The notes under the pieces were generated by a model that ran no database searches, had not been told where the DNA came from, and saw nothing but the letters and a program-made list of their open reading frames with translations. Made by a program: the position numbers and the translations under genes. A DNA stretch of 64,000 nucleotides from an uncultured delta proteobacterium (lineage in GTDB: Bacteria > Myxococcota > Myxococcia > Myxococcales > Myxococcaceae): assembly GCA_963776345.1 (NCBI GenBank), contig CAVZMH010000003.1, positions 128,001-192,000 on the forward strand, read 5' to 3'. Positions within the stretch are counted from its first letter, which is position 1. Each line of letters opens with the position of its first letter. This document shows positions 2,355-23,717 of the stretch, one piece after another.

Positions 2355-4550
2355 TCAGAAGTAGAGCGCCACCGTGGCCCGGAGGTTGATCGGGTTGCCG
2401 GGCGTGAAGTGGATGTCGGTCACTCCCTTGCCCGCGAGGCCCGGATCGTCCCGTCCGGCGACGTACGAGTCGTTCGCGAACTGCGCCTCGCGCCAGCTCG
2501 TGTTCAGCACGTTCTCCAGCACCATTCCGACCTCGAGGAAGCGCCACCGGTAGGCCGCGGTGAGGTCGACGACGAAGTAGCCTTGGGCCTGGAGGCCGTT
2601 CGGGTCCTGGGTCGCGGGGCGGCTCCCGACCCAGCGCGCTCCGAGGCGACCGCGCCAGCCCGCGGGATGGAGGACGCTGAGCCCCGCCTGCCCGGTGAGG
2701 CTCGGCGCCAACGCCACCGCGCTGCCGTTGCCCTGGTCCTTCGTGTACGCCGCATGCGCGAGGGTCAAGTCGAAGTCGGCCCACATCCACGGGAGGATCC
2801 GGAAGCGCGCCTCGAGGTCGACACCGTACCGGTCGGTCGGGTCGGACGCCTCCACCGTGCCGTCGTCGGCCACGAAGACGAACTCGGACTGGAGATGGAT
2901 GACCCAGAGCGCCGCGGCGAGGTCCAGGCGGCGATCGAGCAGTGACAGTCGGGTCCCGATCTCGCCGCCCCAGGCCCGGGGCAGCGCGCCCACGCCGTCC
3001 TGCGCGACGACGGCCCGCGCGTCGTTGCTGTGAAAGCCTCCGCCGGCGTCCAGGTACAGGTCCCAGCCGGTCACCGGGGTGATGACGGTCTGGAGCTTCG
3101 GGTTGACGATCCCCCGCTGCACCACCGAGGTTCCCTGGTTGGGCAGCGCGCTCGGGTTCGGGCTGGTGTTGGTGACGTTCCACTCGAAGAGGTCCCCCCG
3201 CACCCCGAGCACGACGCGCAGCCACCGGGTGAAGCGCACGTCCTCCTGCAGGAAGGCGGCGAGATCGGACTGCACCACGTCGTCGAGGGCGCAGGGATTG
3301 AGCGCGGGCTCGCCCACCGGGGCGCAGTTCGAGAGCCGCACCCGCTGCTTGACGTGCCAGAGGCCGACGCTCGTCGAGTCGAGCCGAGCCTGGGCGCCCA
3401 GGGTGGTCACGGTCCGGATGTCGCCGAGGTCGACCCGCCGCCGGTACGTGGCGTTCAGGCCCGCGTAGACCCGCGCATCGTCCTGCTCGATCTCGTCGAA
3501 GTTCGCCTGGTCACGGAGCTGGAAGGTGAAGTCGTTGAAGAGCGTGAGACGGTAGCGGACCAGGTATGCGGTGATGGCGATCTCGTCGGTGTCGGACGGG
3601 CGGCTCTCGACGGTGAGCGCGAGCATCTGGCGCTGCGTCTGGCCGCCCTCGGTCGGGTCGATCGCCCCGAACCGGTCCAGGTGCCGCGGGTCCGACTCGG
3701 GCAGGTCCACGAACCGGGCCGGGATCTGCCCGCTCGAGCGCCACTGTGAGCCGTAGGCGCTGGCGAGGATGCCGAGCCGCGTCGACGAGGAGATCTGGAG
3801 CGTTGACTTGAGGAGGAGGTTGTAGCGGCGCAGGTCCTCGCCGACCAAGAACGGGCCCTGCGTGCCGTAGACCTCCGCTGCCATCCAGGTCGGGTTGGTG
3901 GCGCTCCCGGTCGTACCGATGCCCAGCACGCGCCAGGTCTCGAACGAGCCGTAGGTCGCCTGCACCGAGCTCTCGGCGAAGCTCCGCCGGGTCCGGAGGT
4001 TCACCGCTCCGGCGGTGGCGAAGTCGCCAACCTCGACGAAGTAGGGGCCCTTCAGGACGTCGACCCGGTCGATGACCTCCGGGATGAGGAAGTGCAGGTC
4101 GGCGTAGCCCTGGCCGTGGGCGTGGGAGGGTAGGTTGACCGGGATGCCGTCGACGGACAGGGCGACGTCCGTCCCGTGGTCGGCGTCGAACCCGCGGAGG
4201 AAGAGCTGGTCCGCCTTTCCACCCCCCTGGTGCTGGGCGATGACTAGGCCCGGGACGACCCGGAGGATGTCCTCCGGGGTCGCGTAGGGGCGGAGGCGGA
4301 GGTCCCGGTCCCGGATGCTCTCCGCCGACGCCGCCGAGGTCGGCGCGGGAGCCTCGATGGTCGTCTCGTACGTGCCCGGCCGCGCCGGGGCGTCGGTGGC
4401 AGCCGGCGTTCCACGAGAGGGTGCCTGCGGGGCGGCTGACTGCAGGGCGGGCTCGGGCAGGTCTGGCGAACGGGTGGCAGGCTGGGCGCGCGCCGCTGCG
4501 CCCAGGAGCAGGAGGGTGAGCCCACAGCTCACCCGGACGGATCGGGGCAT
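2355..4550 (-). CDS. TonB-dependent receptor, probably metal uptake
   Basis: Signal peptide, plug region QHQGGGKADQLFLRGFDADHGTD...HAHGQGYADL...KGPY, C-terminal aromatic (VALYF), SD GAGGGGG upstream. Confidence 0.9.
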   Translation of the reverse strand: MPRSVRVSCGLTLLLLGAAARAQPATRSPDLPEPALQSAAPQAPSRGTPAATDAPARPGTYETTIEAPAPTSAASAESIRDRDLRLRPYATPEDILRVVPGLVIAQHQGGGKADQLFLRGFDADHGTDVALSVDGIPVNLPSHAHGQGYADLHFLIPEVIDRVDVLKGPYFVEVGDFATAGAVNLRTRRSFAESSVQATYGSFETWRVLGIGTTGSATNPTWMAAEVYGTQGPFLVGEDLRRYNLLLKSTLQISSSTRLGILASAYGSQWRSSGQIPARFVDLPESDPRHLDRFGAIDPTEGGQTQRQMLALTVESRPSDTDEIAITAYLVRYRLTLFNDFTFQLRDQANFDEIEQDDARVYAGLNATYRRRVDLGDIRTVTTLGAQARLDSTSVGLWHVKQRVRLSNCAPVGEPALNPCALDDVVQSDLAAFLQEDVRFTRWLRVVLGVRGDLFEWNVTNTSPNPSALPNQGTSVVQRGIVNPKLQTVITPVTGWDLYLDAGGGFHSNDARAVVAQDGVGALPRAWGGEIGTRLSLLDRRLDLAAALWVIHLQSEFVFVADDGTVEASDPTDRYGVDLEARFRILPWMWADFDLTLAHAAYTKDQGNGSAVALAPSLTGQAGLSVLHPAGWRGRLGARWVGSRPATQDPNGLQAQGYFVVDLTAAYRWRFLEVGMVLENVLNTSWREAQFANDSYVAGRDDPGLAGKGVTDIHFTPGNPINLRATVALYF

Positions 4551-4619
4551 CGAGTCCCCCTCGGCGGACGGTGGAACGACCGGCAGACACTGGGCGGCGC
4601 GGGAGGGTCCCGCGCTGCG

Positions 4620-5000
4620 TCACGGTGCCTGCGGCTGTTCCTGCGACCACCAGCGGGGAAGGGAGATCGCGCGCCCCGGGGGCATCAGCGGCGACCGGAG
4701 CGCGAGCACCACCGGCTCGAACACGATCGGCGGCGCCGCCGCGAGCAACGGGAGCTGGAGGTGCTCGGGCGCGCCCGGGGCGTGGTGGTGCTCCGCTGGA
4801 CGCGCCGGCCCGGAGGGCGCGCCATGCCCGTCTCCATGCTGGACCCACGGCTCATCCGCCCCGTGGCGGAGGAACGGCGTCCCGTGCGCGAGCAGTGGGT
4901 GGGCGAGCGGGGCCACGGCCAGCACCCAGCCCGCGAGCACGAGGGCGAGCGGCGCCGCATCGCTCCTGCGCTGTGCGTGCGTGGCTCGGGCTCGGAGCAT
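4620..5000 (-). CDS. His-rich small membrane/secreted leader protein (DUF2946-like uORF) upstream of the TBDR
   Basis: 126 aa: hydrophobic N-terminal segment, His-rich middle (HGDGHG, EHHHAPG), Pro-rich tail ending EQPQAP-stop. Co-directional, 69 bp upstream of the TBDR. Confidence 0.6.
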   Translation of the reverse strand: MLRARATHAQRRSDAAPLALVLAGWVLAVAPLAHPLLAHGTPFLRHGADEPWVQHGDGHGAPSGPARPAEHHHAPGAPEHLQLPLLAAAPPIVFEPVVLALRSPLMPPGRAISLPRWWSQEQPQAP

Positions 5001-5035
5001 GAGTCTGACCAGGAGAACTACGGCAGCCAGCGCCG

Positions 5036-5057
5036 ATCGAATTCAAGCGAAATCGAT
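5036..5057. promoter_or_regulatory. AT-rich imperfect palindrome, candidate metal-regulator operator
   Basis: ATCGAATT-caagcg-AAATCGAT (one mismatch) between the divergent uORF/TBDR and hupE genes. Confidence 0.3.
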
Positions 5058-5099
5058 GCGCCTGCAGCGGCGCTCGGCCAGTAGGGTGGGCCCCACCCG

Positions 5100-6126
5100 A
5101 TGTCCCGGCCGCGACTCCTCGCCCTCCTCTTGCTCGGCGCGCTCGTCCCGGCAGCGGCCCGCGCGCACGCCGTGCGCCTCTCCACCGGGGACGTGGCGGT
5201 CGACGGCCAGGAGGTGCGGGCCACCCTCCAGTTCGCGCGGGCCGAGCTCGACGTGCTCCGGCCGGAGGAGGTGGCGGCGACGGTGCAGGTCTCTGCCGAC
5301 GGGGCGCCGTGCGCGCTCGCCGGCTCGTCGGTCGCGCCCGTCCAGGACGACGGCGTGGCGATCAGCGCGCGCTGGGAGTGCCCGCGACCGCTCGGCCGGC
5401 TGCGGATGGCGCTCGGCTTCCTCGGTCGGCTGCCGGAGGGACACCTGCACGTGGCGCTGCTCCGGCTTCCCGGGCGGCACAGTGCAGCGGACGGCCCGGG
5501 CCAGCGCACCGGTCCTGGAGGCGGAGGCGCAGCCGGGAGCGTGGGCCGGCGCGGGCAGGTTCCTCCGGCTCGGGGCCGAGCACATCTTCCAGGGGAGCGA
5601 CCACATCGCCTTCCTGCTCGGCGTGCTGCTGCTGGGGGGCACCCTCCGACAGCTCCTGGGCATCATCACCGCGTTCACCGCCGCCCACTCGGTGACGCTC
5701 GCCGTGGCGACGCTGGGCTGGCTGGTTCCGCCGCCGCGCCTCATCGAGCCGCTGATCGCCCTGAGCATCGTGGCCGTGGCGGTGGAGAACTTGCTGGCGC
5801 TCCGCGCTCCCCTCTCGACGGCCAGGGTCCGGTCCTCCATCGCCCGCAGGTGGCGCCTCACCCTCGGCTTCGGGCTGGTGCACGGCTTCGGGTTCGCCGG
5901 CGCGCTCCGGGCGCTCGAGCTGGCGAGGGCGCTGCTCGCCCCGAGCCTGCTGACCTTCAACCTCGGCGTCGAGCTGGGGCAGCTGGTCATCGTCGCCCTG
6001 GCGTGGCCGCTGCTTCGCTGGGCGCGGAGCCTGCCCGGAATGTGGCCGGCCGGCATGCGCTGGGCCTCGGTCGCCGTCTCGGCCCTCGGCGCCTTCTGGC
6101 TCGCGCAGCGCGTGTTCTGGCCCTGA
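5100..6126 (+). pseudogene. HupE/UreJ-family nickel transporter, +1 frameshift near 5465 (possibly a sequencing error)
   Basis: Signal peptide ...ARAH in the frame starting at 5100. The C-terminal half is in the next frame: GAEHIFQGSDHIAFLL, TAFTAAHSVTL, FGLVHGFGFA, FNLGVELGQ. Confidence 0.85.
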
Positions 6127-7652: not shown

Positions 7653-8387
7653 ATGGCCGGTCCCCTGATCGCCGTCCAGGACGTCACCAAGGTCTTCCGG
7701 ATGGGAGACGTGGAGGTGCGCGCGCTCCGGGGCGTGAGCCTGGAGATCGCCGCCGGCGAGTTCGTCGCCATCCGCGGGCCCTCCGGAAGCGGGAAGTCGA
7801 CGCTGATGAACATCCTGGGCTGCCTCGACCGGCCCACCACCGGACGCTACCTGCTCGAGGGGCGGGACGTGGCCCCGCTGGACCGGGACGCCCTGGCCCG
7901 CATCCGGAACCGGATGCTGGGCTTCGTCTTCCAGAGCTTCAACCTCCTCCACCGGACCAGCGCGATCGAGAACGTGGAGCTGCCGCTCCTGTACGCCGGG
8001 GTCGGCCGGGTGGAGCGTCGGCGGCGGGCGGCCGAGGCGCTGGAGCGGGTGGGGCTCGGTGACCGGCTGGACCACACCCCCAATCGCCTGTCGGGCGGGC
8101 AGCAGCAGCGAGTGGCCATCGCCCGCGCGCTGGTCAGCGAGCCGAAGCTCATCCTCGCCGACGAGCCCACCGGAAACCTCGATTCCCGGACCAGCGTCGA
8201 GCTGATGGCCCTGTTCCAGGAGCTGGGCCGGAGCGGGATCACCATCGTGCTGGTCACGCACGAGCCGGACGTCGCCACCTTCGTGGGCCGGGTGGTCGTC
8301 GTCCGTGACGGCCACATCGCCAGCGACCGCCGGCAGGTCCCCGCGCGCGCCGACCCGTCCGCCCTCCCGGAGGAGGAGGCGGGATGA
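7653..8387 (+). CDS. ABC transporter ATP-binding protein (MacB/LolD type)
   Basis: Walker A GPSGSGKST, LSGGQQQRVAIARAL, ILADEPTGNLD, VTH. Confidence 0.95.
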   Translation: MAGPLIAVQDVTKVFRMGDVEVRALRGVSLEIAAGEFVAIRGPSGSGKSTLMNILGCLDRPTTGRYLLEGRDVAPLDRDALARIRNRMLGFVFQSFNLLHRTSAIENVELPLLYAGVGRVERRRRAAEALERVGLGDRLDHTPNRLSGGQQQRVAIARALVSEPKLILADEPTGNLDSRTSVELMALFQELGRSGITIVLVTHEPDVATFVGRVVVVRDGHIASDRRQVPARADPSALPEEEAG

Positions 8388-9604
8388 ACGGCCTCGAGAC
8401 GCTGCGGGTGGCGATCCGCGCGCTGCTCCGGAACAAGCTCCGCTCGTTCCTGACCACCCTGGGGATGATCTTCGGGGTGGGCGCGGTGGTCGCCACGGTG
8501 GCCATCGGCGAGGGGGCGCGGGCTGCGGTCGAGGAGGCCTTCGCCTCGATGGGGACCAATCTGCTGGTCGTGCTCCCGGGCTCGTCGACCACCGGAGGCG
8601 CTCGTGGCGGGTTCGGGTCCCAGCCCACGCTGACCTGGGAAGATCTCCGCGCCGTCCGGACCGAGGTGCCCACGGTGCGCTACGCCGTCCCGTACCTCCG
8701 GAGCTCCTCGCAGGTGCTCAGCGAGGAGCAGAACTGGACGACGCAGGTGGCCGGCACCGAGCCGGACTACTTCGAGATCCGCAGCTGGCCCATGGCGCTC
8801 GGCACGCGCTTCACCGACTCGGACGTGGACACCGGGACCAAGGTGGTGGTGCTGGGGGGGACGGTGGCGGAGAAGCTGTTCGGCCCCAACTCGAACCCGG
8901 TGGGCCAGACGGTGCGGATCCGGAACATCCCCTTCCAGGTGGTGGCGGTGGCCGGCCGGAAGGGACAGACGCCGACCGGCCAGGACTCGGACGACGTGGT
9001 CTTCATCCCCCGCAGCACCTTCCAGGCGAAGATCCAGGGAGGCCTGGGAAAGTTCCTCCAGGGGACCATCTTCATCAGCGCGACCAATGCCGCCACGGCC
9101 CAGCGCGAGGTGGCGGATCTCCTGCGGGACCGACACCGCGTCGGCGGGGCCTCCGAGGACGACTTTCAGATCCGCAACCTGGCCGAGGTGGCGAGCGCGC
9201 AGGAGGAGAGCAGCCGGACGGTGACGCTCTTCCTGGCCATCGTCGCCGCGGTGTCGCTGCTGGTGGGCGGCATCGGGATCATGAACATCATGCTGGTGAG
9301 CGTGACCGAGCGGACCCGGGAGATCGGCACCCGGATGGCGGTCGGCGCCCGGGGGCGCGACATCCTCCGGCAGTTCCTCGGCGAGGCCGTGGTGCTCTCG
9401 GTCGCCGGCGGCCTGCTGGGCATCACCACCGGCGTGGTGATCGCGCGCTGGCTGACCGCGGCCTTCCACTGGCCGGTGGCCTTCCGGTGGGACGTGATGA
9501 TCCTCGCGGTCGTCTTCAGCGGCGCCGTCGGCGTGCTCTTCGGTCTGTACCCGGCCCGCAAGGCGAGCCGCCTCGACCCCATCGAGGCCCTTCGCTACGA
9601 GTGA
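8384..9604 (+). CDS. ABC transporter permease (MacB/FtsX family)
   Basis: LRSFLTTLGMIFGV, GGIGIMNIMLVSVTERTREIG, PARKASRLDPIEALRYE. Confidence 0.95.
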   Translation: MNGLETLRVAIRALLRNKLRSFLTTLGMIFGVGAVVATVAIGEGARAAVEEAFASMGTNLLVVLPGSSTTGGARGGFGSQPTLTWEDLRAVRTEVPTVRYAVPYLRSSSQVLSEEQNWTTQVAGTEPDYFEIRSWPMALGTRFTDSDVDTGTKVVVLGGTVAEKLFGPNSNPVGQTVRIRNIPFQVVAVAGRKGQTPTGQDSDDVVFIPRSTFQAKIQGGLGKFLQGTIFISATNAATAQREVADLLRDRHRVGGASEDDFQIRNLAEVASAQEESSRTVTLFLAIVAAVSLLVGGIGIMNIMLVSVTERTREIGTRMAVGARGRDILRQFLGEAVVLSVAGGLLGITTGVVIARWLTAAFHWPVAFRWDVMILAVVFSGAVGVLFGLYPARKASRLDPIEALRYE

Positions 9605-9704
9605 GCCCGGGGAGCGTCCCCGGAGACGCGAAACGGCCTCCTGCCCCGTCCGGGGGTGGTCCCGGGCCAAGTCCGCGTGTTCACGGGACTTGACTCCGGC
9701 CTCC

Positions 9705-9798
9705 CGCAGTCATTGCGTTGTGCCCCGGCCGGGCGCGCAGTGCATGCGCCCAGAGGACTCCACCGTCGCGGGGGCGGACGGGTGGCTCGACCCTTGCT
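9705..9798 (+). promoter_or_regulatory. Sigma54 promoter of the hyp operon with two upstream CGCA-N5-TGCG boxes
   Basis: Boxes at 9705-9717 and 9736-9748 (the second is GCGCA-gtgca-TGCGC). -24/-12 TGGCTCGACCCTTGCT at 9783-9798. Confidence 0.7.
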
Positions 9799-9836
9799 CC
9801 AGGCGGCGATCGGCTCGGGATCGGAGGTCACCTGGC

Positions 9837-12107
9837 ATGCACCAAGGCCGGCGTATCGAGGTCGTAGGCACGGTTCAAGGTGTCGGCTTCCGCCCGTGGG
9901 TGTACCGCATCGCGAGAGAGCTCGGGATCGGGGGGCAGGTCCGGAACGACGTGGGCGGCGTGACGGTGGAGGCGTTCGGCGAGCCGTCCGCGCTCGATGG
10001 CCTGGTGCAGGCGCTGCGGTCCGATCATCCGCCCGCGGCCGAGATCCGCTCGCTGCAGTGGGAGGAGATTCCCGCTCGCGAGACCGACGAGTTCGTCATC
10101 GCCCCGAGCCTGCCGGGCACCGGACGGCGGGTGTCGATCCCCGCCGATCTCGCCACCTGCCCGGCGTGCGTGGAGGAGATCTTCGATCCCGCCAACCGGC
10201 GGTACCGGTACCCCTTCACCAACTGCACCGACTGCGGCCCGCGCTTCACGATCGCCCGCGACGCCCCCTACGACCGCCCGGTCACCTCCATGGCCGGCTT
10301 CGTCATGTGCGAGGCCTGCCAGCGCGAGTACGACGACCCGGGGGATCGGCGCTTCCACGCCCAGCCGAACGCCTGCCCCCGCTGCGGGCCGCGTCTGCAG
10401 CTCCTCGACTCCACCGGGAAGGACCTCGCCTCGGCCAATCCTCTCGGAGAGGTGGCCGCGGCGCTCCGGGCGGGGAACCTGGTCGCGGTGAAGGGGCTCG
10501 GGGGCTACCACCTCGCGTGCGACGCCACGTCGAGCGAGGCGGTGCGGCTGCTCCGGGAGCGCAAGCGCCGGGACGCCAAGCCGTTCGCGGTGATGGTGCG
10601 GGACCTGAAGGAGGCCCGGAGGCTGGCCACCATCTCCGAGGCCGAGGCCCGCCTGCTCGAGTCGGTGGAGCGGCCCATCGTCCTGGTCCTGCGGAAGCGG
10701 GTGGGGCGGTCGGTGGCGCCCGAGGTCGCGCCGGACAACCCGCTCATCGGCCTGATGCTGCCGTACACGCCACTCCACCACCTCCTGCTGGCGGAGGTGG
10801 ACCGGCCGCTGGTGATGACCTCGGGCAATCTCTCGGACGAGCCCATCGTCTTCGAGGAGGCCGAGGCGCTGAAGAAGCTCCGTGAGGTCGCGGACCTCTT
10901 CCTGACCCACGACCGTCCGATCGTCACCCGCTGCGACGACTCGGTGACCCGGGTGGTGGCGGGCGCGCCGGTCCTTCTCCGGCGCTCGCGCGGCTATGCG
11001 CCCCGGCCCATCCCGCTCGCCCATCCAGTGGCCCGCCCGGTGCTGGCCTGCGGCGCTCAGATGAAGAACACGTTCTGCCTCGCCGCCGGGGACATCGCGG
11101 TGCTCGGGCCCCACGTGGGCGACCTCGATCAGCTCGAGGTCCATCGGTCCTACGAGGAGTCCATCGACCGGATGCAGCGGTTCCTCGGCTGCCGGCCCGA
11201 GGTCATCGCCTACGACCTGCACCCCGACTACGCCTCGACGCGCTACGCGCTGGATCGGCCCGAGACGGTCAAGGTGGCGGTGCAGCACCACCACGCGCAC
11301 GTGGCCAGCGCCATCGCCGAGCACGGCCTGGAGGGTCCGGTCATCGGCGTGGCCTTCGACGGCACGGGCTACGGCACCGACGGCAGCGCCTGGGGAGGGG
11401 AGATCCTCGTCGCCTCGGTGAGCGGGTTCCAGCGCCTCGCCACCCTGCACCCCGTGGCGCTGGCCGGCGGCGAGCGCGCCATCCGCGAGCCGTGGCGAAT
11501 CGGGCTGGCGCTCCTGCTGGACGCCTACGACGGCGATCCGCCCGGGTTGTGGAACTTCCCCGCCATCCCCGAGGACGCCGGGGTGCATGTCCGGCAGGCG
11601 CTGATCCTGGGCATCAACGCCCCGAAGGCGCACGGGATGGGTCGGCTCTTCGACGGCATCGGCGCCCTGGTCCTCGGGCTCGGGAAGGCCCGCTACGAGG
11701 GCGAGGTGGCGCTGGCCTGGAACCTGGCGGCGGACCCCGGGGCGCACGGACGGTATCCGTTCGGCATCGACACCCGCGGATCGGTCCTGGAGCTGGACCT
11801 CCGGCCCATGGTGCGCGCCCTGGTGGAGGAGCACCTGGTGGGCGTGCCGGCCCCCCGGCTCGCGGCGAAGTTCCACGACACCCTCGCCCACGCCACCGCC
11901 ACGCTGGTGGGGCTGGTCCGCGACCGCGCAGGAGACCTCCCGGTCGTCCTGACCGGCGGCTGCTTTCAGAACGCGCGTCTGGCCGAGGGGCTGGCCGCGG
12001 CGCTCGAACCGGAGTGCGAGGTGCACCTCCACCGGCAGGTCCCGCCGGGAGATGGAGGAATCGCGCTGGGTCAGGTGATGGTGGCCGACGCGACCACCCG
12101 CGGTTGA
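9837..12107 (+). CDS. hypF: Carbamoyltransferase HypF
   Basis: GTVQGVGFRP acylphosphatase-like domain, two CxxC-x18-CxxC zinc fingers, VKGLGGYHLACDA, QHHHAH, GDGGIALGQ. SD GGAGGT before ATG 9837. Confidence 0.97.
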   Translation: MHQGRRIEVVGTVQGVGFRPWVYRIARELGIGGQVRNDVGGVTVEAFGEPSALDGLVQALRSDHPPAAEIRSLQWEEIPARETDEFVIAPSLPGTGRRVSIPADLATCPACVEEIFDPANRRYRYPFTNCTDCGPRFTIARDAPYDRPVTSMAGFVMCEACQREYDDPGDRRFHAQPNACPRCGPRLQLLDSTGKDLASANPLGEVAAALRAGNLVAVKGLGGYHLACDATSSEAVRLLRERKRRDAKPFAVMVRDLKEARRLATISEAEARLLESVERPIVLVLRKRVGRSVAPEVAPDNPLIGLMLPYTPLHHLLLAEVDRPLVMTSGNLSDEPIVFEEAEALKKLREVADLFLTHDRPIVTRCDDSVTRVVAGAPVLLRRSRGYAPRPIPLAHPVARPVLACGAQMKNTFCLAAGDIAVLGPHVGDLDQLEVHRSYEESIDRMQRFLGCRPEVIAYDLHPDYASTRYALDRPETVKVAVQHHHAHVASAIAEHGLEGPVIGVAFDGTGYGTDGSAWGGEILVASVSGFQRLATLHPVALAGGERAIREPWRIGLALLLDAYDGDPPGLWNFPAIPEDAGVHVRQALILGINAPKAHGMGRLFDGIGALVLGLGKARYEGEVALAWNLAADPGAHGRYPFGIDTRGSVLELDLRPMVRALVEEHLVGVPAPRLAAKFHDTLAHATATLVGLVRDRAGDLPVVLTGGCFQNARLAEGLAAALEPECEVHLHRQVPPGDGGIALGQVMVADATTRG

Positions 12108-12118: not shown

Positions 12119-12406
12119 ATGTGCCTCGGCGTTCCGGGAAGGGTGGTGGAGGTCGACGGGCTCGTCGCCACGGTCGACTTCTGGGGCCTGAGGAAGCAGG
12201 TCCGGCTCGACGTGGTGGACGCTCCCGTGGCGCCCGGTGACTACGTGCTGAACCACGTGGGCTTCGCCATCCGGCGCATCCCGGCCAGCGAGGCCGAGGA
12301 CACGCTCGCCCTGTACTCCGAGCTCCTGGCCAAGGAGGCCCCGGAGGACCTCATGGCCGCGGACGTCCGGGGCGAGCTGGACGCCGCGGACCGGGGCAAG
12401 CGATGA
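12119..12406 (+). CDS. hypC: Hydrogenase maturation chaperone HypC
   Basis: MCLGVPG N-terminus, GDYVLNHVGFAI, SD AGGAG. Confidence 0.95.
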   Translation: MCLGVPGRVVEVDGLVATVDFWGLRKQVRLDVVDAPVAPGDYVLNHVGFAIRRIPASEAEDTLALYSELLAKEAPEDLMAADVRGELDAADRGKR

Positions 12407-13557
12407 GCGGCGTGGCGACCGAGGCGGCCCAGCTCAAGTTTCGCGATCCCGCCGCGGCCCGGGCGCTCGGGGCGGCGCTCGAAAAGGTGACCCGGGAGAT
12501 CGGCCGCGACCCGGTGGCGGTGATGCACGTGTGCGGAAGCCACGAGCAGGCCATCGCCCGGTTCGGGCTGCGGGCGGCGTTCCCGCCGGCGCTGGACGTG
12601 ATCATGGGCCCGGGCTGCCCGGTGTGCATCACCGACGTGCCCGAGGTGGACGAGGGCGTCGCCCTGGCCCGCCAGGGCGTCCGGGTGGCCACCTACGGCG
12701 ACATGCTCCGGGTGCCGGGATCGGCGGGCTCTCTGGCCGACGCCCGTGCCGCGGGGGCGAAGGTGGACATCGTCTACGGAGTCTCCCAGGCGGTGGAGCT
12801 CGCCCGGCAGACCAACGAGGAGGTGGTCTTCTTCGCCACCGGCTTCGAGACCACGGCGGTGGCCACCGCGGCGGAGATCCTCCGCGGGCCGCCGAAGAAC
12901 TTCTCGGTCCTCTCGGCCCACAAGTACATCCCGCCGGTGATGGAGATCGTCGCCGAGATGCCCGGGAGCCGGGTGGAGGGGTTCCTCGCCGCCGGCCATG
13001 CGGCGACCATCACCGGTTTCGCGGTCTTCGAGCCCTTCGTCGAGCGGCACCGGCTGCCGGTGGTGGTGGCGGGGTTCGAGCCGCTGGACATCCTCGCCGG
13101 CCTGCTGCGGCTGGTGGAGCTGATCCGCGACGGCACCCCGAGGGTGGAGAACCTCTACCCCCGCTGCGTGACGCGGGAGGGGAACCTCGCGGCGCAGGAG
13201 CAGCTATGGAAGGTGTTCCGTCCCCTGGGCGGGCGCTGGCGCGGCATCGCCCACGTGCCCAACGGGAACCTCCGCCTTCAAGATTCCTGGGCGCACCTCG
13301 ACGCCCGGCGCCGCTTCGACATCGACGTCAAGGCGCTGTGGGACTTCGCCCCGCCGGCGCTGGTCCAGCGCTGCATCTGTGGCGAGATCATGTCCGGCAT
13401 GCAGTCGCCCACCGCCTGCCCCATGTTCGGCAAGGAGTGCCAGCCGGAGACGCCGGTGGGGGCGTGCATGGTGAGCAGCGAGGGCACCTGCCGCATCTGG
13501 CACCAGTACGGCGGACACCCGCAGCTCGGCCGCGTGGCCGTGGGAGGCACCCCGTGA
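12403..13557 (+). CDS. hypD: Hydrogenase maturation factor HypD
   Basis: HVCGSHE, GPGCPVC, GFETT, C-terminal CICG...CPMFGKEC...GACMVSSEGTC. Confidence 0.97.
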   Translation: MSGVATEAAQLKFRDPAAARALGAALEKVTREIGRDPVAVMHVCGSHEQAIARFGLRAAFPPALDVIMGPGCPVCITDVPEVDEGVALARQGVRVATYGDMLRVPGSAGSLADARAAGAKVDIVYGVSQAVELARQTNEEVVFFATGFETTAVATAAEILRGPPKNFSVLSAHKYIPPVMEIVAEMPGSRVEGFLAAGHAATITGFAVFEPFVERHRLPVVVAGFEPLDILAGLLRLVELIRDGTPRVENLYPRCVTREGNLAAQEQLWKVFRPLGGRWRGIAHVPNGNLRLQDSWAHLDARRRFDIDVKALWDFAPPALVQRCICGEIMSGMQSPTACPMFGKECQPETPVGACMVSSEGTCRIWHQYGGHPQLGRVAVGGTP

Positions 13558-14588
13558 GACCGCAGCTCCCGCTGGGGACGACGGTGAGCCTGAAGCACGG
13601 CGCGGGCGGCCGGGCGATGCGCGCGCTCATCGAGCAGCTCTTCGCCGAGGGCGCCCAGCAGCCCCCCGGCTCGGTGGGCCTCGCCGAGATGGACGACGGC
13701 GCCGCCTTCCCGCTCAAGGACGGCTGGCTGGTGCTCACCACCGACTCGCACATCGTCGCCCCGCGCTTCTTCCCCGGCGGGGACGTGGGACGGCTGTCCA
13801 TCTCCGGAACGGTGAACGACCTGTCGATGATGGGCGCCACCGAGGTCCTCGGGCTGACCTGTGCGGTGGTCATCGAGGACGGCTTCCCCATCCAGGAGCT
13901 GGAGCGCATCCACGCCTCGATGCGGGACACCTCGCGCGAGGCGAATGCCCCCGTCGTCACCGGCGACACCAAGGTGATGGGGCGGGGCGAGCTGGACGGG
14001 CTGGTCCTCAACACCACCGGCGTGGCGTTCACCGACCGGCTGGTGCGCGACAACGGGCTCCGCCCCGGAGACCGCATCGTGGTGACCGGCACCATGGGGG
14101 ACCATGGCTTCGCGGTGCTTGCCGCGCGGCAGAAGCTGGAGCTCCAGGGGAATCTGAAATCCGACGTCGCCCCGCTCAACGGGCTCGTCCGGGAGGTGCT
14201 CCGGGCCGCCGGCGACGGCGTGGTGGCGATGAAGGACCCGACGCGCGGAGGGCTCTCCAGCGCCCTCCACGAGATGGCGGAGAAGAGCGGGGTGGGCATC
14301 CTCCTCGAGGAGCAGGCGGTGCCGCTCTCCGACGAGGTGCGCGCCGCCTCGGAGATCCTCGGCATCGACCCGCTGCACGTGGCCAACGAGGGGAAGGCGG
14401 TGCTCGGCGTCCGCCCCGAGGCGCTGGACCGGGTGATGGCCGCCTTGGACCGGCACCCCCTCGGCCGGCGCGCCGCGGTGGTGGGCACCTGCATCGCCGA
14501 GCAGAAGGGGCGCATCGTGCTCGACACCGGCCTCGGACGGCGGCTCCTCGCCGAGCCCGAGGGCGAGCCGATGCCGCGGATCTGCTGA
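13554..14588 (+). CDS. hypE: Carbamoyl dehydratase HypE
   Basis: HGAGG, TTDSH, GTVNDL, TGDTKV, KDPTRGG, ANEGK, C-terminal PRIC. GTG start overlaps the hypD stop. Confidence 0.97.
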   Translation: MRPQLPLGTTVSLKHGAGGRAMRALIEQLFAEGAQQPPGSVGLAEMDDGAAFPLKDGWLVLTTDSHIVAPRFFPGGDVGRLSISGTVNDLSMMGATEVLGLTCAVVIEDGFPIQELERIHASMRDTSREANAPVVTGDTKVMGRGELDGLVLNTTGVAFTDRLVRDNGLRPGDRIVVTGTMGDHGFAVLAARQKLELQGNLKSDVAPLNGLVREVLRAAGDGVVAMKDPTRGGLSSALHEMAEKSGVGILLEEQAVPLSDEVRAASEILGIDPLHVANEGKAVLGVRPEALDRVMAALDRHPLGRRAAVVGTCIAEQKGRIVLDTGLGRRLLAEPEGEPMPRIC

Positions 14589-14595: not shown

Positions 14596-15441
14596 GTGGC
14601 CGCGCCGACTCACATCCGGACCGCCGTCGACCGTGGCGTCGGAACCCTCACCATCGACCGGCCGCAGCGCTTCAACTCGCTCGACGTCTCGACCGCGCGT
14701 GACCTCCGGAAGGCCGGCCTGCAGCTGGCGCGCGACCCGGCGGTCCGGGTGGTGGTGCTCCGCGGCGCGCCCGGCATCTTCTGCAGCGGCGCGGACCTCA
14801 AGTACATCCGCGCCGGCGGCGATCCGGCGGAGCTCGGCTACCTGACGCCTGGCGCCCGCCCGGTCCCGCTGGGCCCGGGGGAGATCTTCAAGCAGATCCT
14901 CGAGTACCTCCACGCCACCATCTCGGAGATCCGCCGGGCGCCCAAGCCGTTCATCGCCGCGGTGGACGGGGCGTGCGCCGCCGGAGGGCTCGGGCTCGCG
15001 ATGTCCTGCGACCTGGTCCTCGCCTCCGAGCGGGCCACCTTCGAGTGGGCGTACGCCAAGACGGGCCTCAGCGGCGCCGAGAGCTCGACCTTCTTCGTGC
15101 CCCGGCTGGCGGGGCTGCGCTTCGCCGCCGAGATGCTGCTCCTGAACCCCCGGCTCGATGCGGCAGCGGCGCGGAGCGCAGGCCTGGTGAACCGCGTCTT
15201 TCCGGTCCTGGCCTTCGACGCCGAGGTGGAAGCCGTGGCCCGGGGTGTCGCCGCGGGTCCCGCCGGAGCGTTCGCCGCCGCCAAGCAGCTGTTCAACGAC
15301 GCCGTGGGGGTGGACCGGCTGGACGTGCACCTCGACCGGGAGCTGGAGGCGCTGGTCCGGAGCGCGGACTCGCCGGAGTTCGCCGAGGGCATCGAGGCCT
15401 TCTTCGCCAGGCGGCCTCCGCGCTTTCCGGGAGCGGAGTGA
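14596..15441 (+). CDS. Stand-alone enoyl-CoA hydratase/isomerase (crotonase) fold protein, last gene of the hyp operon; HypX C-domain-like
   Basis: LTIDRPQRFNSL, FCSGADL, PKPFIAAVDGACAAGG, YAKTGLSGAESSTFFVPR. Starts 7 bp after hypE. Confidence 0.9.
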   Translation: MAAPTHIRTAVDRGVGTLTIDRPQRFNSLDVSTARDLRKAGLQLARDPAVRVVVLRGAPGIFCSGADLKYIRAGGDPAELGYLTPGARPVPLGPGEIFKQILEYLHATISEIRRAPKPFIAAVDGACAAGGLGLAMSCDLVLASERATFEWAYAKTGLSGAESSTFFVPRLAGLRFAAEMLLLNPRLDAAAARSAGLVNRVFPVLAFDAEVEAVARGVAAGPAGAFAAAKQLFNDAVGVDRLDVHLDRELEALVRSADSPEFAEGIEAFFARRPPRFPGAE

Positions 15442-15544
15442 CGGGTCGCGCGCGCTGTCCGCCCGGCCGATCGAGACCCGGCAGCAGTGCAGCGCGGCAT
15501 CACCTGAACTGATGCGATGGGTCCGCCCGGAAGTATCCATTCCG

Positions 15545-15636
15545 CGCAAGGGTTGCGTCCCTCCGGGACACTCACGCAGGTCCTGCCCCGCCTCCGCCTG
15601 GCTGTGCTCCGAGACCGACGAGGCTTGTCTCTTGCA
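15545..15636 (+). promoter_or_regulatory. Sigma54 promoter of the hydrogenase structural operon with two CGCA-N5-TGC(G/C) boxes
   Basis: Boxes at 15545-15557 and 15575-15587. -24/-12 AGGCTTGTCTCTTGCA at 15621-15636. Confidence 0.7.
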
Positions 15637-15707
15637 CGCCCCACCGGCGCCGCGGCGTCGAGCCTTCGAGATGAACGCTGGCCGTACGCCCGAGACGGAG
15701 GGCTGTC

Positions 15708-16844
15708 ATGGGGAGTCGCGAAGGCTGGCTGGCCGGAGAGCTCCGGCGCCGCGGAGTCAGTCGCCGGGAGTTGCTCTTGTTCTGCGCCGGGGTGGCGGGC
15801 ACGTTCGGGTTACCTGCCTCCGCTGCGACGCAGATCGCCAACGCGCTCACCAAGGCCAAGAAGCCCATCCTGGTGTGGCTCGAGTTCCAGGACTGCTGCG
15901 GCAACACCGAGTCGTTCCTGCGCTCGAGCGCGCCGACGGTGGCGGAGATCGTCCTCGACCTCCTCAGCGTGGACTACCACGAGACGATCATGGCCGCGGC
16001 GGGCTTCCAGGCCGAGGAGGCGCTGAAGGGCGTGGTGAAGGACAACGCCGGTCAGTTCATCGCGGTGGTGGAGGGGAGCATTCCCACCGGCGCTGACGGC
16101 GCGTACTGCACCATCGGCGGGCGCTCGGCGCTGGACATCGCCCGGGACGTCTGCGGCAAGGCGGCGGCCACCATCGCCGCCGGGACCTGCGCCACGTACG
16201 GCGGGCTCCCGGCCGCGTCGCCGAACCCCACCGGCGCGCTGGGTGTCGCCGACGCGGTCCCCGGGGTGAAGAACCTGATCAACCTCTCGGCCTGTCCGAT
16301 GAACGCCGCGAACCTGACGGCGCTGCTCACCTACTACCTGACCTACAAGCGCTGGCCGCCGCTCGACGGCTTCCGGCGGCCGCTGTTCGCCTACGGGAAG
16401 ACCATCCACGACAACTGCGAGCGCCGGGCGCACTTCGACGCCGGGCAGTACGTGGAGATGTGGGGGGACGACGCGCACCGGTCCGGCGCCTGCCTCTACA
16501 AGATGGGCTGCAAGGGGCCGGTGACCTTCCAGAACTGCCCCACCGTCCGCTGGAACGATGGGACCAACTGGCCCATCGGCTGCGGTCACCCGTGCATCGG
16601 CTGCGCCGAGCCGGACTTCTGGGACAAGATGACGCCTTTCTACAAGCACCTGCCCGCCGTGGCCGGGTTCGGCGCCGGCACGGGCGTAGACACCGTCGGC
16701 GCCTGGCTCACCGTGGGCACCGCGGCGGCGTACGCCGGGCACGGGGTGATCAAAGGCATCCAGAACGCCGGGAAGAAGAAGGAAAACGGCGCCGGTCCTC
16801 CCGGTGACAACGCCCCGGCCGGCAAGGCAGGGGGCGCGTCATGA
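15708..16844 (+). CDS. hyaA: Group 1 [NiFe]-hydrogenase small subunit, Tat-exported
   Basis: Tat motif SRRELL; FeS ligands DCCGN, GTCA, SACP, HDNC, CLYKMGCKGP, NCP, HPCIGC; C-terminal TM anchor. Confidence 0.95.
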   Translation: MGSREGWLAGELRRRGVSRRELLLFCAGVAGTFGLPASAATQIANALTKAKKPILVWLEFQDCCGNTESFLRSSAPTVAEIVLDLLSVDYHETIMAAAGFQAEEALKGVVKDNAGQFIAVVEGSIPTGADGAYCTIGGRSALDIARDVCGKAAATIAAGTCATYGGLPAASPNPTGALGVADAVPGVKNLINLSACPMNAANLTALLTYYLTYKRWPPLDGFRRPLFAYGKTIHDNCERRAHFDAGQYVEMWGDDAHRSGACLYKMGCKGPVTFQNCPTVRWNDGTNWPIGCGHPCIGCAEPDFWDKMTPFYKHLPAVAGFGAGTGVDTVGAWLTVGTAAAYAGHGVIKGIQNAGKKKENGAGPPGDNAPAGKAGGAS

Positions 16845-18538
16845 GTCACGTGGTGGTGGATCCGGTCACCCGGATCGAAGGACATCTCCGGATCGAGGCA
16901 GAGGTCGATGGCGGTCAGGTGCAGGACGCCTGGTCGTCGAGCACGATGTTCAGAGGACTCGAGCTCATCCTCAAGGGTCGCGATCCACGCGACGCCTGGG
17001 CCTTCGCCCAGCGCATCTGCGGGGTGTGCACCACGGTGCACGCCATCGCTTCGATCCGAGCGGTGGAGAACGCGATCGGGGCCAAGCCTCCGCCCAATGC
17101 ACGGGTGCTTCGCAACCTCATCATGGCCTCGCAGTGCATCCAGGACCACGTCATCCACTTCTACCATCTGCACGCGCTGGACTGGGTGGATGTGGTCTCG
17201 GCGCTCAAGGCCGATCCGGAGAAGACCTCGGCACTGGCCCAGTCCATCTCCGACTGGCCGCTCTCCAGCACCAAGTACTTCACCGGGGTGAAGGGCCGGC
17301 TCAAGGACTTCGTGGACCGCGGCCAGCTCGGCCCCTTCGCCAACGCCTACTGGGGACACCCCGCCTACAAGCTGCCGCCGGAGGCCAACCTCATGGCGGT
17401 GGCCCACTACCTCGAGGCCCTGGAGTGGCAGCGCGACTTCATCAAGATGCACGCCTACCTCGGCGGCAAGAACCCCCACCTCCAGTCGTTCCTGGTGGGC
17501 GGCATGGCCACGCCGGTGGATCCCGACAAGCAGGCCTCGATCAACATGGGAACGGTGGCCCACCTCAAGGGGCTCACCGCCAGGGCGCGCGAGTTCGTCT
17601 CCAAGGTCTACCTCCCGGACGTGCTCGCGGTGGCCAGCTTCTACAAGGACTGGGCGGCGGTGGGCGGCGGAGTCGGCAACTACATGGTCTACGGCGAGTA
17701 CCCGGAGAGCGACGACGACAAGCCGACGCTCTTCCTGCCCTCCGGCGTCATCCGCAACAAGAACCTGGGCAAGGTCGAGCCGCTCGACGCGAGCAAGATC
17801 ACCGAGTCGGTGAAGCACAGCTGGTACGAGGACAGCGCGCAGCCGCTCCATCCCCGCGATGGCGAGACCCGGCCCAAGTACACCGGGCCCAAGCCTCCGT
17901 ACGAGCGGCTGGAGACGGCGGCCAAGTACAGCTGGCTGAAGTCGCCCCGCTACGGCGGCGAGCCGATGGAGGTCGGACCGCTCTCGCGGATGCTGGTGGC
18001 CTACGGCTCCGGCCACAAGCGGGTCCAGGAGCTGGTGGGCACGGTGCTCAAGTCGCTGGGGGTCGGCCCGGAGGCGCTCTTCTCGACGCTGGGGCGCATC
18101 GCCGCCCGCTGCGTGGAGACGGTGCTCCTGACGGAGAAGATCGACACCTGGATCGACGCCCTCGCGGCGAACATGGAGAAGGGCGACCTCCGGATCCACG
18201 ACACCGGGAAGTGGGACCCCTCGTCCTGGCCGAAGGAGGCCTTCGGCGCCGGGTTCCACGAGGCGCCCCGCGGCGCGCTCGGCCACTGGGTGCACATCAA
18301 GGACGGGGTCATCGCCAACTACCAGTGCATCGTGCCCAGCACCTGGAACGCCGGACCGCGCGACGGGGCGGAGAAGCGTGGACCCTACGAGGCAGCGCTG
18401 CTCAAGACCCCGGTGTTCGATCCAAAGCAGCCGCTGGAGATCCTCCGAACCGTCCACTCCTTCGACCCCTGCATGGCCTGCGGAGTCCACGTGGTGGACG
18501 TGGAACGGAGGGAACTGGCGAGCGTGAGGACGCCATGA
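16841..18538 (+). CDS. hyaB: Group 1 [NiFe]-hydrogenase large subunit
   Basis: DPVTRIEGHL, L1 motif QRICGVCTTVH, L2 motif SFDPCMACGVH followed by a cleavable tail. Confidence 0.97.
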   Translation: MSHVVVDPVTRIEGHLRIEAEVDGGQVQDAWSSSTMFRGLELILKGRDPRDAWAFAQRICGVCTTVHAIASIRAVENAIGAKPPPNARVLRNLIMASQCIQDHVIHFYHLHALDWVDVVSALKADPEKTSALAQSISDWPLSSTKYFTGVKGRLKDFVDRGQLGPFANAYWGHPAYKLPPEANLMAVAHYLEALEWQRDFIKMHAYLGGKNPHLQSFLVGGMATPVDPDKQASINMGTVAHLKGLTARAREFVSKVYLPDVLAVASFYKDWAAVGGGVGNYMVYGEYPESDDDKPTLFLPSGVIRNKNLGKVEPLDASKITESVKHSWYEDSAQPLHPRDGETRPKYTGPKPPYERLETAAKYSWLKSPRYGGEPMEVGPLSRMLVAYGSGHKRVQELVGTVLKSLGVGPEALFSTLGRIAARCVETVLLTEKIDTWIDALAANMEKGDLRIHDTGKWDPSSWPKEAFGAGFHEAPRGALGHWVHIKDGVIANYQCIVPSTWNAGPRDGAEKRGPYEAALLKTPVFDPKQPLEILRTVHSFDPCMACGVHVVDVERRELASVRTP

Positions 18539-19302
18539 GAGCCATGGCCGCGCATCCGCCGGGGGAGCTCCATCCGGCGGTCAAGGGCACGCGCACCCGG
18601 GTCTACGTCTGGGACCTGGTGGTGCGGAACACACACTGGTTCATCGTCCTGAGCATGGCGATTCTCATCGCCACCGGCCTGTACATCGCCCATCCCTTCG
18701 GTTTCCCCGGGGGGACACCCAGCCCGCACTTCATGATGGGCTGGATACGGGTGGTGCACTTCTACGCCGCCATCTTCTTCACCCTGGCGGTGGTGGTGCG
18801 GATCATCTGGCTCTTCGTCTCGCCGGTGCTCTACGCCCGGTGGACCCAGTTCCTGCCCTGGCCCCGTTACCGGCGGCGCGAGCTGCTCACCACCCTCAAG
18901 TTCTACACCTTCTTCCGCGCCCGGCCGCCCGACGTCATCGGCCACAATCCGCTGGCCGGGCTCGCCTACACCGCGGTGTTCTGTCTCTACCTCCTGATGA
19001 TCGCCACGGGCCTGGCGCTGTACGCGGGCGAGGCCATCCCCGGCGCGTACATGAAGAGCTTCCAGTTCCTCCTCCCCTGGTTCGGAGGCCTGCAGACCGC
19101 CCGGTTCATCCACCACCTGGTGATGTGGGTGCTGATCCTCTTCGTGACGCTGCACCTGTACACCGGCGCGCTCACCTCGGCGCTGGAGGAGAACGGCGAG
19201 GTGGACTCGATCTTCTCCGGTTACAAGTTCGTGCACCACGCCGACGTGGAGAAGGAGCTCGCCGACGAGGCGGCCGAGCACGCGGGACGGCGCCGTGCCT
19301 GA
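18535..19302 (+). CDS. hyaC: Ni/Fe-hydrogenase b-type cytochrome subunit
   Basis: VYVWDLVVRNTHW, RVVHFY, GHNPLA, FIHHLVMW...LHLY, SIFSGYK. Confidence 0.93.
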   Translation: MRAMAAHPPGELHPAVKGTRTRVYVWDLVVRNTHWFIVLSMAILIATGLYIAHPFGFPGGTPSPHFMMGWIRVVHFYAAIFFTLAVVVRIIWLFVSPVLYARWTQFLPWPRYRRRELLTTLKFYTFFRARPPDVIGHNPLAGLAYTAVFCLYLLMIATGLALYAGEAIPGAYMKSFQFLLPWFGGLQTARFIHHLVMWVLILFVTLHLYTGALTSALEENGEVDSIFSGYKFVHHADVEKELADEAAEHAGRRRA

Positions 19303-19849
19303 TCGGCTGCTGGTGCTCGGCCTCGGCAACCCGCTCTGTCAGGACGACGGGGTGGGAGTGATGGCGGTGACGCGTCTGCTGGAAAGCTGGAGCCCAGGGC
19401 CCGGCGTGAGGGTGATGGAGGGAGGCACGCTCGGGCTCTGGTTGCTCCCGCTGCTCGAGTCCTACCGGACGGTGCTCCTGGTGGACGCCATCCGCGCCGA
19501 GGGCGAGCCGGGGACGCTGGTGCGCATCGAGGGCGAGGAGGTGGCCCGCGCCGCTGCCCATCGGCTCTCCGTGCACCAGGTGGGCGTGGGCGACCTGATG
19601 GACGCCGCGCAGCTCCGCGGGACCCTGCCGCCGAAGCTGACGCTCCTCGGGGTGGTGCCGGAGGCGGTCTCGCTGGGGCTCGGGCTCACGCCGCGCGTGG
19701 AGCGGGCGCTTCCGCTCCTGATGGACCGGGTGCTCGAGGCCTGCGCCGAGCTCGGACATCCGCTCCGGCCGAGGTCGGACGATGAAATCCTGGTGGGCGC
19801 TGACGATGGCCTGCGCCGGGTCCTGGGCATGCCCGTCGAGGTGCGCTGA
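19295..19849 (+). CDS. hyaD: Hydrogenase maturation endopeptidase
   Basis: LVLGLGNPLCQDDGVG, EGGTLG, LLVDA, SVHQ. Confidence 0.92.
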   Translation: MPDRLLVLGLGNPLCQDDGVGVMAVTRLLESWSPGPGVRVMEGGTLGLWLLPLLESYRTVLLVDAIRAEGEPGTLVRIEGEEVARAAAHRLSVHQVGVGDLMDAAQLRGTLPPKLTLLGVVPEAVSLGLGLTPRVERALPLLMDRVLEACAELGHPLRPRSDDEILVGADDGLRRVLGMPVEVR

Positions 19850-21360: not shown

Positions 21361-21753
21361 ATGGGCGCGATGGAGACGGTTCACCCGGTGAATGGCCCGG
21401 CGGGCTGGCTGGAGCGGCTGGCCTGGGCGGTGGGGGGGTCGGTCCAGGCGCAGGCGGTGTACGGGCAGCCGGTCGAGCGGGAGGGCATCACGATCGTCCC
21501 CGTGGCCCGCGTGGCCTACGGATTCGGCGGCGGGGGAGGACGGAACGCGCCGGCCGGCGCCGAGCACGATGAGGGCGGCGGCGGAGGTGCGCAGGTCCGG
21601 CCGGTCGGCTTCATCAGCCTGCGGGACGGCTCGGCCGAGTTCCGGAGCATTCCGGATCCGGCCGCCGAGGCACGCCGGATCTTCGCCCTGCTCGCCGGCA
21701 CGGGGCTCGGGGCCTGGTTGGTCTTCCGGGGAATCCGCAGCCTCTTCCGGTGA
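21361..21753 (+). CDS. GerW/YtfJ-family protein
   Basis: VYGQPVEREGITIVPVARVAYGFGGGGG...GGGGGAQVRPVGFI, C-terminal TM, SD GGAGGT. Confidence 0.8.
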   Translation: MGAMETVHPVNGPAGWLERLAWAVGGSVQAQAVYGQPVEREGITIVPVARVAYGFGGGGGRNAPAGAEHDEGGGGGAQVRPVGFISLRDGSAEFRSIPDPAAEARRIFALLAGTGLGAWLVFRGIRSLFR

Positions 21754-23717
21754 CCGCCGTGGACGGCCTGGACTCCGCCCGGGAGCGCCTGGTCAACACG
21801 CTCGCCGCGCGCGGCATCGTCGATCCGGAGGTCCTCCGGGCCTTCGGGGAGGTGCCACGGCATCGATTCCTCCCGGCGGCGATGGCCGAGTTCGCCTACC
21901 AGGACGTCCCGCTCCCCATCGCCGAGGGGCAGACCATCTCCCAGCCGTACGTGGTGGCCTGGATGACCGAGGCCGCCGGGGTGAAGCCGGGGAAGCGGGT
22001 GCTCGAGATCGGCACCGGCTCGGGGTACGCCGCCGCGGTGGCCTCGCGCATCGCCGCGGAGGTCTTCTCCGTCGAGCGCCACGGGGCCCTCGCCGAGGGC
22101 GCCCGCGCGCTGATCGCCGATCTGGGCTACCGGAACGTCCAGGTGCTGCACGCGGACGGAACCCGGGGCTGGCCGGAGCACGCGCCCTACGACGCCATCC
22201 TCGTCGCGGCCGGTGGGCCCTCGGTCCCGTCGGCCCTCCTGGACCAGCTCGCCCCGGGCGGCGCCCTGGTGATGCCGGTGGGCAGCGCCGACGCGCAGAC
22301 GCTGGTGCGGGTCCGACGGGGCCAGGACGGCGTGCTGGAGCGCGAGGATCTGGGCGACGTCCGCTTCGTTCCCCTGGTGGGCGAGCACGGCTGGGCGCCC
22401 GTGTCCCGGGCCTCGGAGCGGGGCGTGGTGACGCTGCTGGGCGAGTGCGCCGAGCCGCTCGAGGACGTGGAGTCGGTGGAGCTGGAGGGGCTGCTGGAGC
22501 GCATCGGCTCGGCGCGGGTGGTCCTCCTGGGCGAGGCCACCCACGGCACGCACGAGTTCTACCGGATGCGCGCCCGCATCAGCCGCGCCCTCGTCGAGCG
22601 GCATGGATTCCGGGCGATCGCCGTCGAGGCAGACTGGCCCGACGCCGCGCGGGTGGACCGCTACGCCCGCCACCTCCCTCCGGCCTCGGTGCCCTGGAAG
22701 GCGTTCTCGCGTTTCCCCACCTGGATGTGGCGGAACGAGGAGGTGCGGCGGTTCGCCGAGTGGCTCCGGGCGCACAACGGACGGGTGGAGCCGGAGCGCC
22801 GGGCAGGCTTCTACGGGCTCGACCTGTACAGCCTCTTCACCTCGGCGGACGCGGTGCTGCGCTACCTCGACCAGGTGGACCCCGAGGCGGCGCGGGTGGC
22901 CAGGGCCCGCTACGGATTGCTCACCCCGTGGCAGACCGACCCGGTCGCCTACGGACGGGCGGTGGTGACCGGGCGCTTCGAGAGCTGCGAGGCCGAGGTG
23001 GTGCAGGTGCTGGTCGATCTCCTGACCCGGAGGCTGGAGTACGAGGCGCGCGACGGCGAGCGCTTCTTCGATGCGGCGGAGAACGCCCGCGTGGTGGCGG
23101 ACGCCGAGGGCTACTACCGCGCGATGTACCGCGGCAACGTGGCCTCCTGGAACCTCCGGGATCGGCACATGGCCGACACGCTCTCGGCGCTGCTCGCCCA
23201 CCTCGGCCCCGACGCGCGGGTGGTGGTCTGGGCCCACAACTCGCACGTGGGCGACGCCACGGCCACCGACATGGGCGCGCAGGGGGAGCACACGCTCGGG
23301 CAGCTCTGCCGGGAGCGCCTGGGCCCGGAGATTCGCCTGGTCGGGTTCGGGACCGACCACGGGACGGTGGTCGCGGCCTCCAACTGGGGCGAGCCGCACG
23401 AGGTGAAGCGGGTGCGTCCGGCCAATCCGCGGAGCTACGAGGCGCTCTGCCACCAGGCGCAGATGCCCGGCTTCTTTCTGTCGCTCCGCCACCCGCGGCG
23501 CGAGGTGCTCCGGGACGAGCTGATGGCGCCCCGGCTCGAGCGGGCCATCGGCGTCATCTACCGGCCCGAGACCGAGCTGCAGAGCCACTACTTCCGCGCC
23601 AGCCTCCCCCGCCAGTTCGACGAGTGGATCTGGTTCGACCGGACGACGGCCCTGCAGCCGCTGGGCGGTGGTCCGCTGGAGCCGGGCCTGCCGGAGACGT
23701 ACCCTTTCGGCCTCTGA
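21750..23717 (+). CDS. pcm: Protein-L-isoaspartate O-methyltransferase fused to an erythromycin-esterase-family domain
   Basis: GQTISQPY, VLEIGTGSGY, APYDAI, VRFVPL; then LLGEATHGTHEFY, VEADWPDA, WNLRD, WAHNSH, TYPFGL. Confidence 0.9.
   Translation: MTAVDGLDSARERLVNTLAARGIVDPEVLRAFGEVPRHRFLPAAMAEFAYQDVPLPIAEGQTISQPYVVAWMTEAAGVKPGKRVLEIGTGSGYAAAVASRIAAEVFSVERHGALAEGARALIADLGYRNVQVLHADGTRGWPEHAPYDAILVAAGGPSVPSALLDQLAPGGALVMPVGSADAQTLVRVRRGQDGVLEREDLGDVRFVPLVGEHGWAPVSRASERGVVTLLGECAEPLEDVESVELEGLLERIGSARVVLLGEATHGTHEFYRMRARISRALVERHGFRAIAVEADWPDAARVDRYARHLPPASVPWKAFSRFPTWMWRNEEVRRFAEWLRAHNGRVEPERRAGFYGLDLYSLFTSADAVLRYLDQVDPEAARVARARYGLLTPWQTDPVAYGRAVVTGRFESCEAEVVQVLVDLLTRRLEYEARDGERFFDAAENARVVADAEGYYRAMYRGNVASWNLRDRHMADTLSALLAHLGPDARVVVWAHNSHVGDATATDMGAQGEHTLGQLCRERLGPEIRLVGFGTDHGTVVAASNWGEPHEVKRVRPANPRSYEALCHQAQMPGFFLSLRHPRREVLRDELMAPRLERAIGVIYRPETELQSHYFRASLPRQFDEWIWFDRTTALQPLGGGPLEPGLPETYPFGL

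Follow-up and report, generated by a model that had tools for sequence, protein, structure and literature searches.

Why does a crotonase gene close a set of hydrogenase maturation genes in a member of the Myxococcota? The gene lies at 14596..15441 (+) of a 64,000-nucleotide stretch (the window) of contig CAVZMH010000003.1, positions 128,001 to 192,000, in the assembly GCA_963776345.1 of an uncultured delta proteobacterium. It begins with a GTG codon and encodes a stand-alone crotonase-fold protein of 281 amino acids. An earlier reading of the letters alone (here, the original prediction) placed its start 7 bp past hypE, which the coordinates bear out (hypE stop codon at 14586-14588, spacer GGGGCCC), and proposed it as half of a HypX. 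Sequence comparison and genomic context make it probable that the protein is a formyl-coenzyme A (formyl-CoA) decarbonylase that feeds carbon monoxide (CO) to the HypC-HypD (HypCD) scaffold for the [NiFe]-hydrogenase.

Pfam finds ECH_1/ECH_2 alone in the open reading frame (ORF), in agreement with the predicted lack of a formyltransferase domain, and both the crotonase fold and the oxyanion-hole segments (SGAD and AAGG) are present. The canonical Glu pair and the PaaG-type Pro-Asp had been described as lost, and they are. Gly133 and Tyr153 fill the columns that we take to be the sites of the two catalytic Glu residues in canonical hydratases, where the host genome's own canonical crotonases have Glu at both, and Ala161 replaces the catalytic Asp of PaaG and is followed directly by a new Glu. 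Tyr153 (TAC, 15052..15054 [+]) and Glu162 (GAG, 15079..15081 [+]), whose codons are where they were predicted to be, align with Tyr439 and Glu449 of HypX from Cupriavidus necator H16 (pHG1; WP_011153943.1) and with Tyr416 and Glu426 of HypX from Aquifex aeolicus (PDB 6J0P). The match to the C. necator pair, which is essential in HypX, is obtained with BLASTP, MAFFT, and hhalign, at the sequence level and with a one-residue gap. Furthermore, Ala129 (14980..14982 [+]) aligns with A. aeolicus Ala392, a residue at the neck, close to the CoA cysteamine. The HypX C-domain motif given in the original prediction was confirmed as HYKNMGNLYGSEYWT in 99 of 111 matching HypX sequences (120 scanned). In the proposed mechanism, formyl-CoA would bind in the CoA site, Glu162 would act as a base with the aid of Tyr153 or water, CO and CoA would be released, and HypC-HypD, as the scaffold, would receive the CO at its Fe.

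Glu150, Tyr153, Ala161, and Glu162 are conserved in all 80 family loci surveyed (the best 80 among 158 loci confirmed in GTDB), and none of the 109 nearest non-family crotonases has Glu at the 162 column. These neighbors bear on one alternative, namely, that the gene encodes an ordinary PaaG-like isomerase or hydratase that was captured by the operon and is unrelated to the hydrogenase. The nearest sequences are indeed PaaG (TIGR02280), the alternative type of oxepin-CoA hydrolase (NF046063), and an AY..GL.PDG clade; automatic annotation agrees, the JGI name is PaaG, and Tyr at column 153 and the absence of the canonical hydratase Glu pair are common to the crotonase and PaaG-like enzymes. However, these best NCBIfam and PDB matches are all below cut-off (138.3 versus 345.15 for TIGR02280 and 166.4 versus 300 for NF046063), as is the score against every other NCBIfam model shown; the nearest named relatives, at 86 to 95%, are Myxococcaceae and "delta proteobacterium" metagenome-assembled genomes. 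The PaaG Asp is lost in 80/80 family members, whereas it is present in 102/109 neighbors and an acidic residue is kept in 104/109. The crotonase also has an insert of about 20 residues (70 to 95) relative to PaaG-like enzymes and, unlike them, is confined to hyp operons in the genomes surveyed; for the true PaaG-like neighbors in genomes G479 and G553, the surrounding 5 kb or so is free of hyp genes. We therefore regard a captured PaaG-like enzyme as extremely unlikely. One cluster of the family (P0392, with P0398 and P0400; 279 amino acids) is very acidic, which suggests a halophilic host outside the sampled phyla.

The position after hypE within the hyp cluster, a feature of HypX, was found in 80/80 family loci and in 28/28 matched loci of the host phylum, which adjoin hypE. 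The distance from hypE is ≤94 bp in 63 of the 80, one gene intervenes in 16, and in 1 (L016:6205-7476) a transposase/integrase-like, insertion-sequence-like ORF splits the two genes. The crotonase closes the hypFCDE unit in the window, as had been predicted, but this is not general, as hypA follows directly in 66/80 loci. Among 301 genomes of the host phylum, 26 carry the family, 135 HypD, and 5 HypX; all 26 carriers have HypD and none has HypX, which was likewise not found in the host genome (98.4% complete). The phylum of genome G301 (251 genomes) yielded 8 true members, along with 2 borderline matches that are PD-G-type proteins without hyp neighbors. No family member was found away from a hyp cluster in the 80 loci or the 301 and 251 genomes. 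The survey of homolog neighborhoods that the original prediction proposed thus came out in its favor.

The second strand of evidence is a partner gene. A PurN-like formyltransferase is encoded between hypE and the crotonase in 16/80 loci, and 60 of 62 such transferases are accompanied by the crotonase; the pair is, by analogy, the two-gene equivalent of HypX. For many Acidobacteriota, the formyl donor would be N10-formyl-tetrahydrofolate (N10-formyl-THF), by way of this neighboring transferase. The partner is distinct from PurN itself: it scores 66 to 71 bits against a cut-off of 150 (TIGR00639), has S.R.PG in the N-terminal loop in place of the glycinamide ribonucleotide-binding SG.G.N, and carries an additional C-terminal AYAHxEWM helix, and both of the partner-bearing genomes checked have a separate match at the level of housekeeping-type PurN/PurU. 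A weak search for natural fusions returned none that is credible, six longer matches appearing frameshifted or mis-started. In G383, a transferase cluster without hypD, hypE, and crotonase (L117:5001-5684; L207:6705-7385) encodes a formyltransferase that has lost the catalytic Asn and Asp.

The linkage data would fit any HypCD-coupled job, and the protein could instead serve maturation as a CoA-thioester hydrolase or isomerase (removing by-products or converting formyl-CoA to formate) or as a noncatalytic HypCD-binding oxygen shield for the Fe-CO intermediate. About 30 family-invariant residues that differ from HypX (e.g., E150, E103, Y104, R241, and H245) point in this direction, as does the fact that most carriers are without a formyl donor gene. 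Such a role would, however, leave unexplained why the sole partner is an N10-formyl-THF transferase, which recreates the two-domain pairing of HypX, and why the Ala, Gly, and Glu residues are held in common with HypX. We consider it unlikely.

HypCD is the component that receives CO and that binds HypX in vitro, and rearranged operons indicate which Hyp proteins the module accompanies. In G310, G328, and G396 (L254, L255, and L253), the order is hypC-hypD-formyltransferase-crotonase, with HypC and HypD 67 to 70% identical to those of the window and the downstream HypE and HypF only 41 to 51% identical. These are mosaic hyp operons, with a hypE-hypA-hypB-hypF part from a distant lineage. In G164 (L243, G164:C1:1932000-1951000, 7925-12101), two divergent hypD genes flank hypE-crotonase, which amounts to a natural experiment on partner specificity; in G281 (L249, C22), hypD is immediately 3' of the crotonase, and in G359, the transferase adjoins a lone hypC. 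From these few loci we infer that the module travels with hypCD rather than with hypEF. In a HypD tree of a smaller set, the crotonase-bearing HypDs form one clade (32/32; support, 98), whereas in a quick tree with more rows, crotonase-less HypDs are nested inside and operons with transferase and crotonase are deepest. The order of gain and loss flips with the rooting, and we claim no polarity.

Several observations weigh against a formyl-CoA decarbonylase, whose CO-release activity is a prediction from sequence. Identity to HypX is 21 to 27%, the Tyr-to-Glu spacing is 9 rather than 10, and PaaG-like or uncharacterized crotonases give the best matches in both sequence and fold, 6J0P not being among the top matches listed by Foldseek. 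Tyr is also found at column 153 in 83/109 of the nearest non-family crotonases and is for that reason weak as a diagnostic; the residues shared specifically with HypX in the alignment are Glu162 together with Ala129 and Gly160, with Tyr153 carrying little weight. The predicted HypX-type Tyr/Glu pair stands as an alignment, with its Glu but not its Tyr being diagnostic. The mutual exclusion of crotonase and HypX is weak evidence, as about one overlap is expected by chance. Among 20 loci hand-picked from 49 crotonase-less candidates, 15 are closely related hyp operons in which hypE abuts hypA, 1 proved to have the crotonase, and 4 are of distant types. Because those 15 operons do without it, the crotonase is optional, not essential in every host. 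Finally, the transferase is absent from 64/80 loci and from all 26 Myxococcota carrier genomes, and the supply of formyl-CoA adds the points considered next.

Since the window genome has no transferase partner, formyl-CoA would have to come from elsewhere. The possibility that the stand-alone genomes encode a dedicated transferase at another site was rejected (0/26), as the best matches have E values typical of housekeeping enzymes (1e-14 to 1e-22) and true members score 1e-69 or better. The host genome has PurN, PurU, and Fmt, one class III CoA-transferase, and an enzyme resembling HACL/Oxc, encoded at C16:667206-668837, whose best PDB matches are 2-hydroxyacyl-CoA lyases (E value, 2e-88). 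Lyases of this type yield formyl-CoA. In the Myxococcota carriers, general metabolism would have to furnish the formyl-CoA, through a HACL/Oxc-type lyase, a CoA-transferase, or a secondary reaction of PurN/PurU. Oxc and Frc are named as possible formyl-CoA sources in a review (PMC12134894). No HACL/Oxc-like gene exceeds the oxc cut-off, such genes are common in close kin without the crotonase, and the gene is missing from 7/26 carriers. As an obligate donor it was rejected as unspecific (19/26 carriers and 93/275 others), and we treat the enzyme as a candidate donor rather than a partner. No formyl-CoA source linked to the locus was found in the ORF clusters of the 80 loci, of which 20 representatives were scanned; these contained only hyp, hydrogenase, and lineage-specific genes. 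Supply is the weakest link of the decarbonylase reading because the formyl-CoA intermediate of HypX stays enzyme bound, according to PMC12134894.

The stand-alone lineages could alternatively derive the CO ligand from another acyl-CoA (oxalyl-, glyoxylyl-, or another 2-oxo-acyl-CoA) rather than from free formyl-CoA. The stand-alone form is the majority (64/80) and has a fully conserved active-site motif, and no formyl-CoA source tracks the crotonase. Members with and without the transferase nevertheless share that motif and are intermixed on the HypD tree, so that one substrate is simpler, and a precedent was not found in the literature searched. This makes another acyl-CoA very unlikely, and formyl-CoA is retained as the probable substrate.

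Whether the likeness to HypX reflects descent is a separate matter. The crotonase is a separate gene, whereas HypX is a fused protein of about 590 amino acids with an Fmt/FDH-like N-domain; the partner transferase is PurN-like and is absent from the window genome. HypX groups with the family in our tree, on a very long branch (Shimodaira-Hasegawa-like approximate likelihood ratio test, 96; 88 without the motif columns). However, an approximately unbiased test does not reject HypX outside the family (P = 0.68), and the constrained tree scored higher; the motif-free tree and this test omitted 20/63 rows. Because the partner is PurN-like rather than Fmt-like, convergence seems as plausible as fission from HypX. 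The "half-HypX" of the original prediction is supported as a functional analogy, given the hyp linkage and partner gene, rather than as descent, given the greater nearness to PaaG and the test result, and should be read as "works like" rather than "is a member." The literature searched, in which subscription journals and paper supplements were largely not covered, contained no stand-alone or split HypX.

A broader proposal, which we put forward tentatively and at slightly less than even odds, is that of a third route to the CO ligand. Here, a PaaG-like crotonase, optionally with a PurN-like transferase, would have given rise to a free-standing decarbonylase separately from HypX, one that works with a HypCD lineage of its own. 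In Myxococcota, it would use formyl-CoA that diffuses within the cell, supplied by HACL/Oxc or as a side product of PurN/PurU. If so, no CO-producing enzyme of its kind would be smaller, and its chemistry would be convergent with that of HypX. More generally, the family offers a single small gene, misannotated as paaG, in which decarbonylation is separable from formyl transfer. It would explain HypX-free hydrogenase maturation in many uncultured Myxococcota, Acidobacteriota, Binatota, and Methylomirabilota, and its small size could make it useful where hydrogenases are to be produced aerobically in heterologous hosts. A need for the enzyme under oxygen may be envisaged. The anaerobic marker NrdD occurs in 0/26 carriers versus 8/49 hand-picked crotonase-less genomes, a difference in the fitting direction that we set aside as weak, as kinship among the genomes makes them nonindependent and distant HypD types turned up in at least 4 of the 49.

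The crotonase is preceded on the same strand by hypF (9690..12107, an open frame with its true start probably near 9840), hypC (12119..12406), hypD (12403..13557), and hypE (13554..14588), with hypF, hypD, and hypE above the cut-offs of TIGR00143, TIGR00075, and TIGR02124, respectively. Beyond its end, 266 bp separate it from the hydrogenase genes, also on the forward strand, which encode a small subunit with a twin-arginine translocation signal (15708..16844), a large subunit of group 1 type (16841..18538), a cytochrome b subunit (18535..19302), and a maturation protease (19295..19849); this hydrogenase presumably resembles group 1f. A sigma54-like GG-N10-GC site (15621..15636 [+]) precedes the structural genes, and a comparable site occurs in 9/9 close loci, window included, although the pattern is loose and has no shuffle control. 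This suggests that the hyp unit of the window ends with the crotonase. Neither a sigma70 promoter nor a terminator was found in 15380-15760. RNA runs, sampled in small shares only, gave scattered short contigs from relatives in four, one of which (228 bases) lies on the gene, and lent no support to expression or cotranscription.

A GAF-sigma54 activator gene is found at 38398-40053 of the window. The sole hypA/hypB pair of the host genome is on another contig (G000:C17; L251:3830-4983), as is a second, more distant gene resembling [NiFe] large subunits (G000:C10:6851-7990; L218). The host genome also has three COX1 genes. Several nickel-related genes share a region of the window: genes for a TonB-dependent receptor and for HupE/UreJ lie upstream (2355-6126), and those for urease and a branched-chain-type ATP-binding cassette transporter lie downstream (41488-50257). 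An A/V-type ATP synthase cluster lies near the hydrogenase (27212-33619 [-]), and we also found a gene at 21750-23717 that encodes a protein-L-isoaspartate methyltransferase domain fused to an erythromycin-esterase-family domain.
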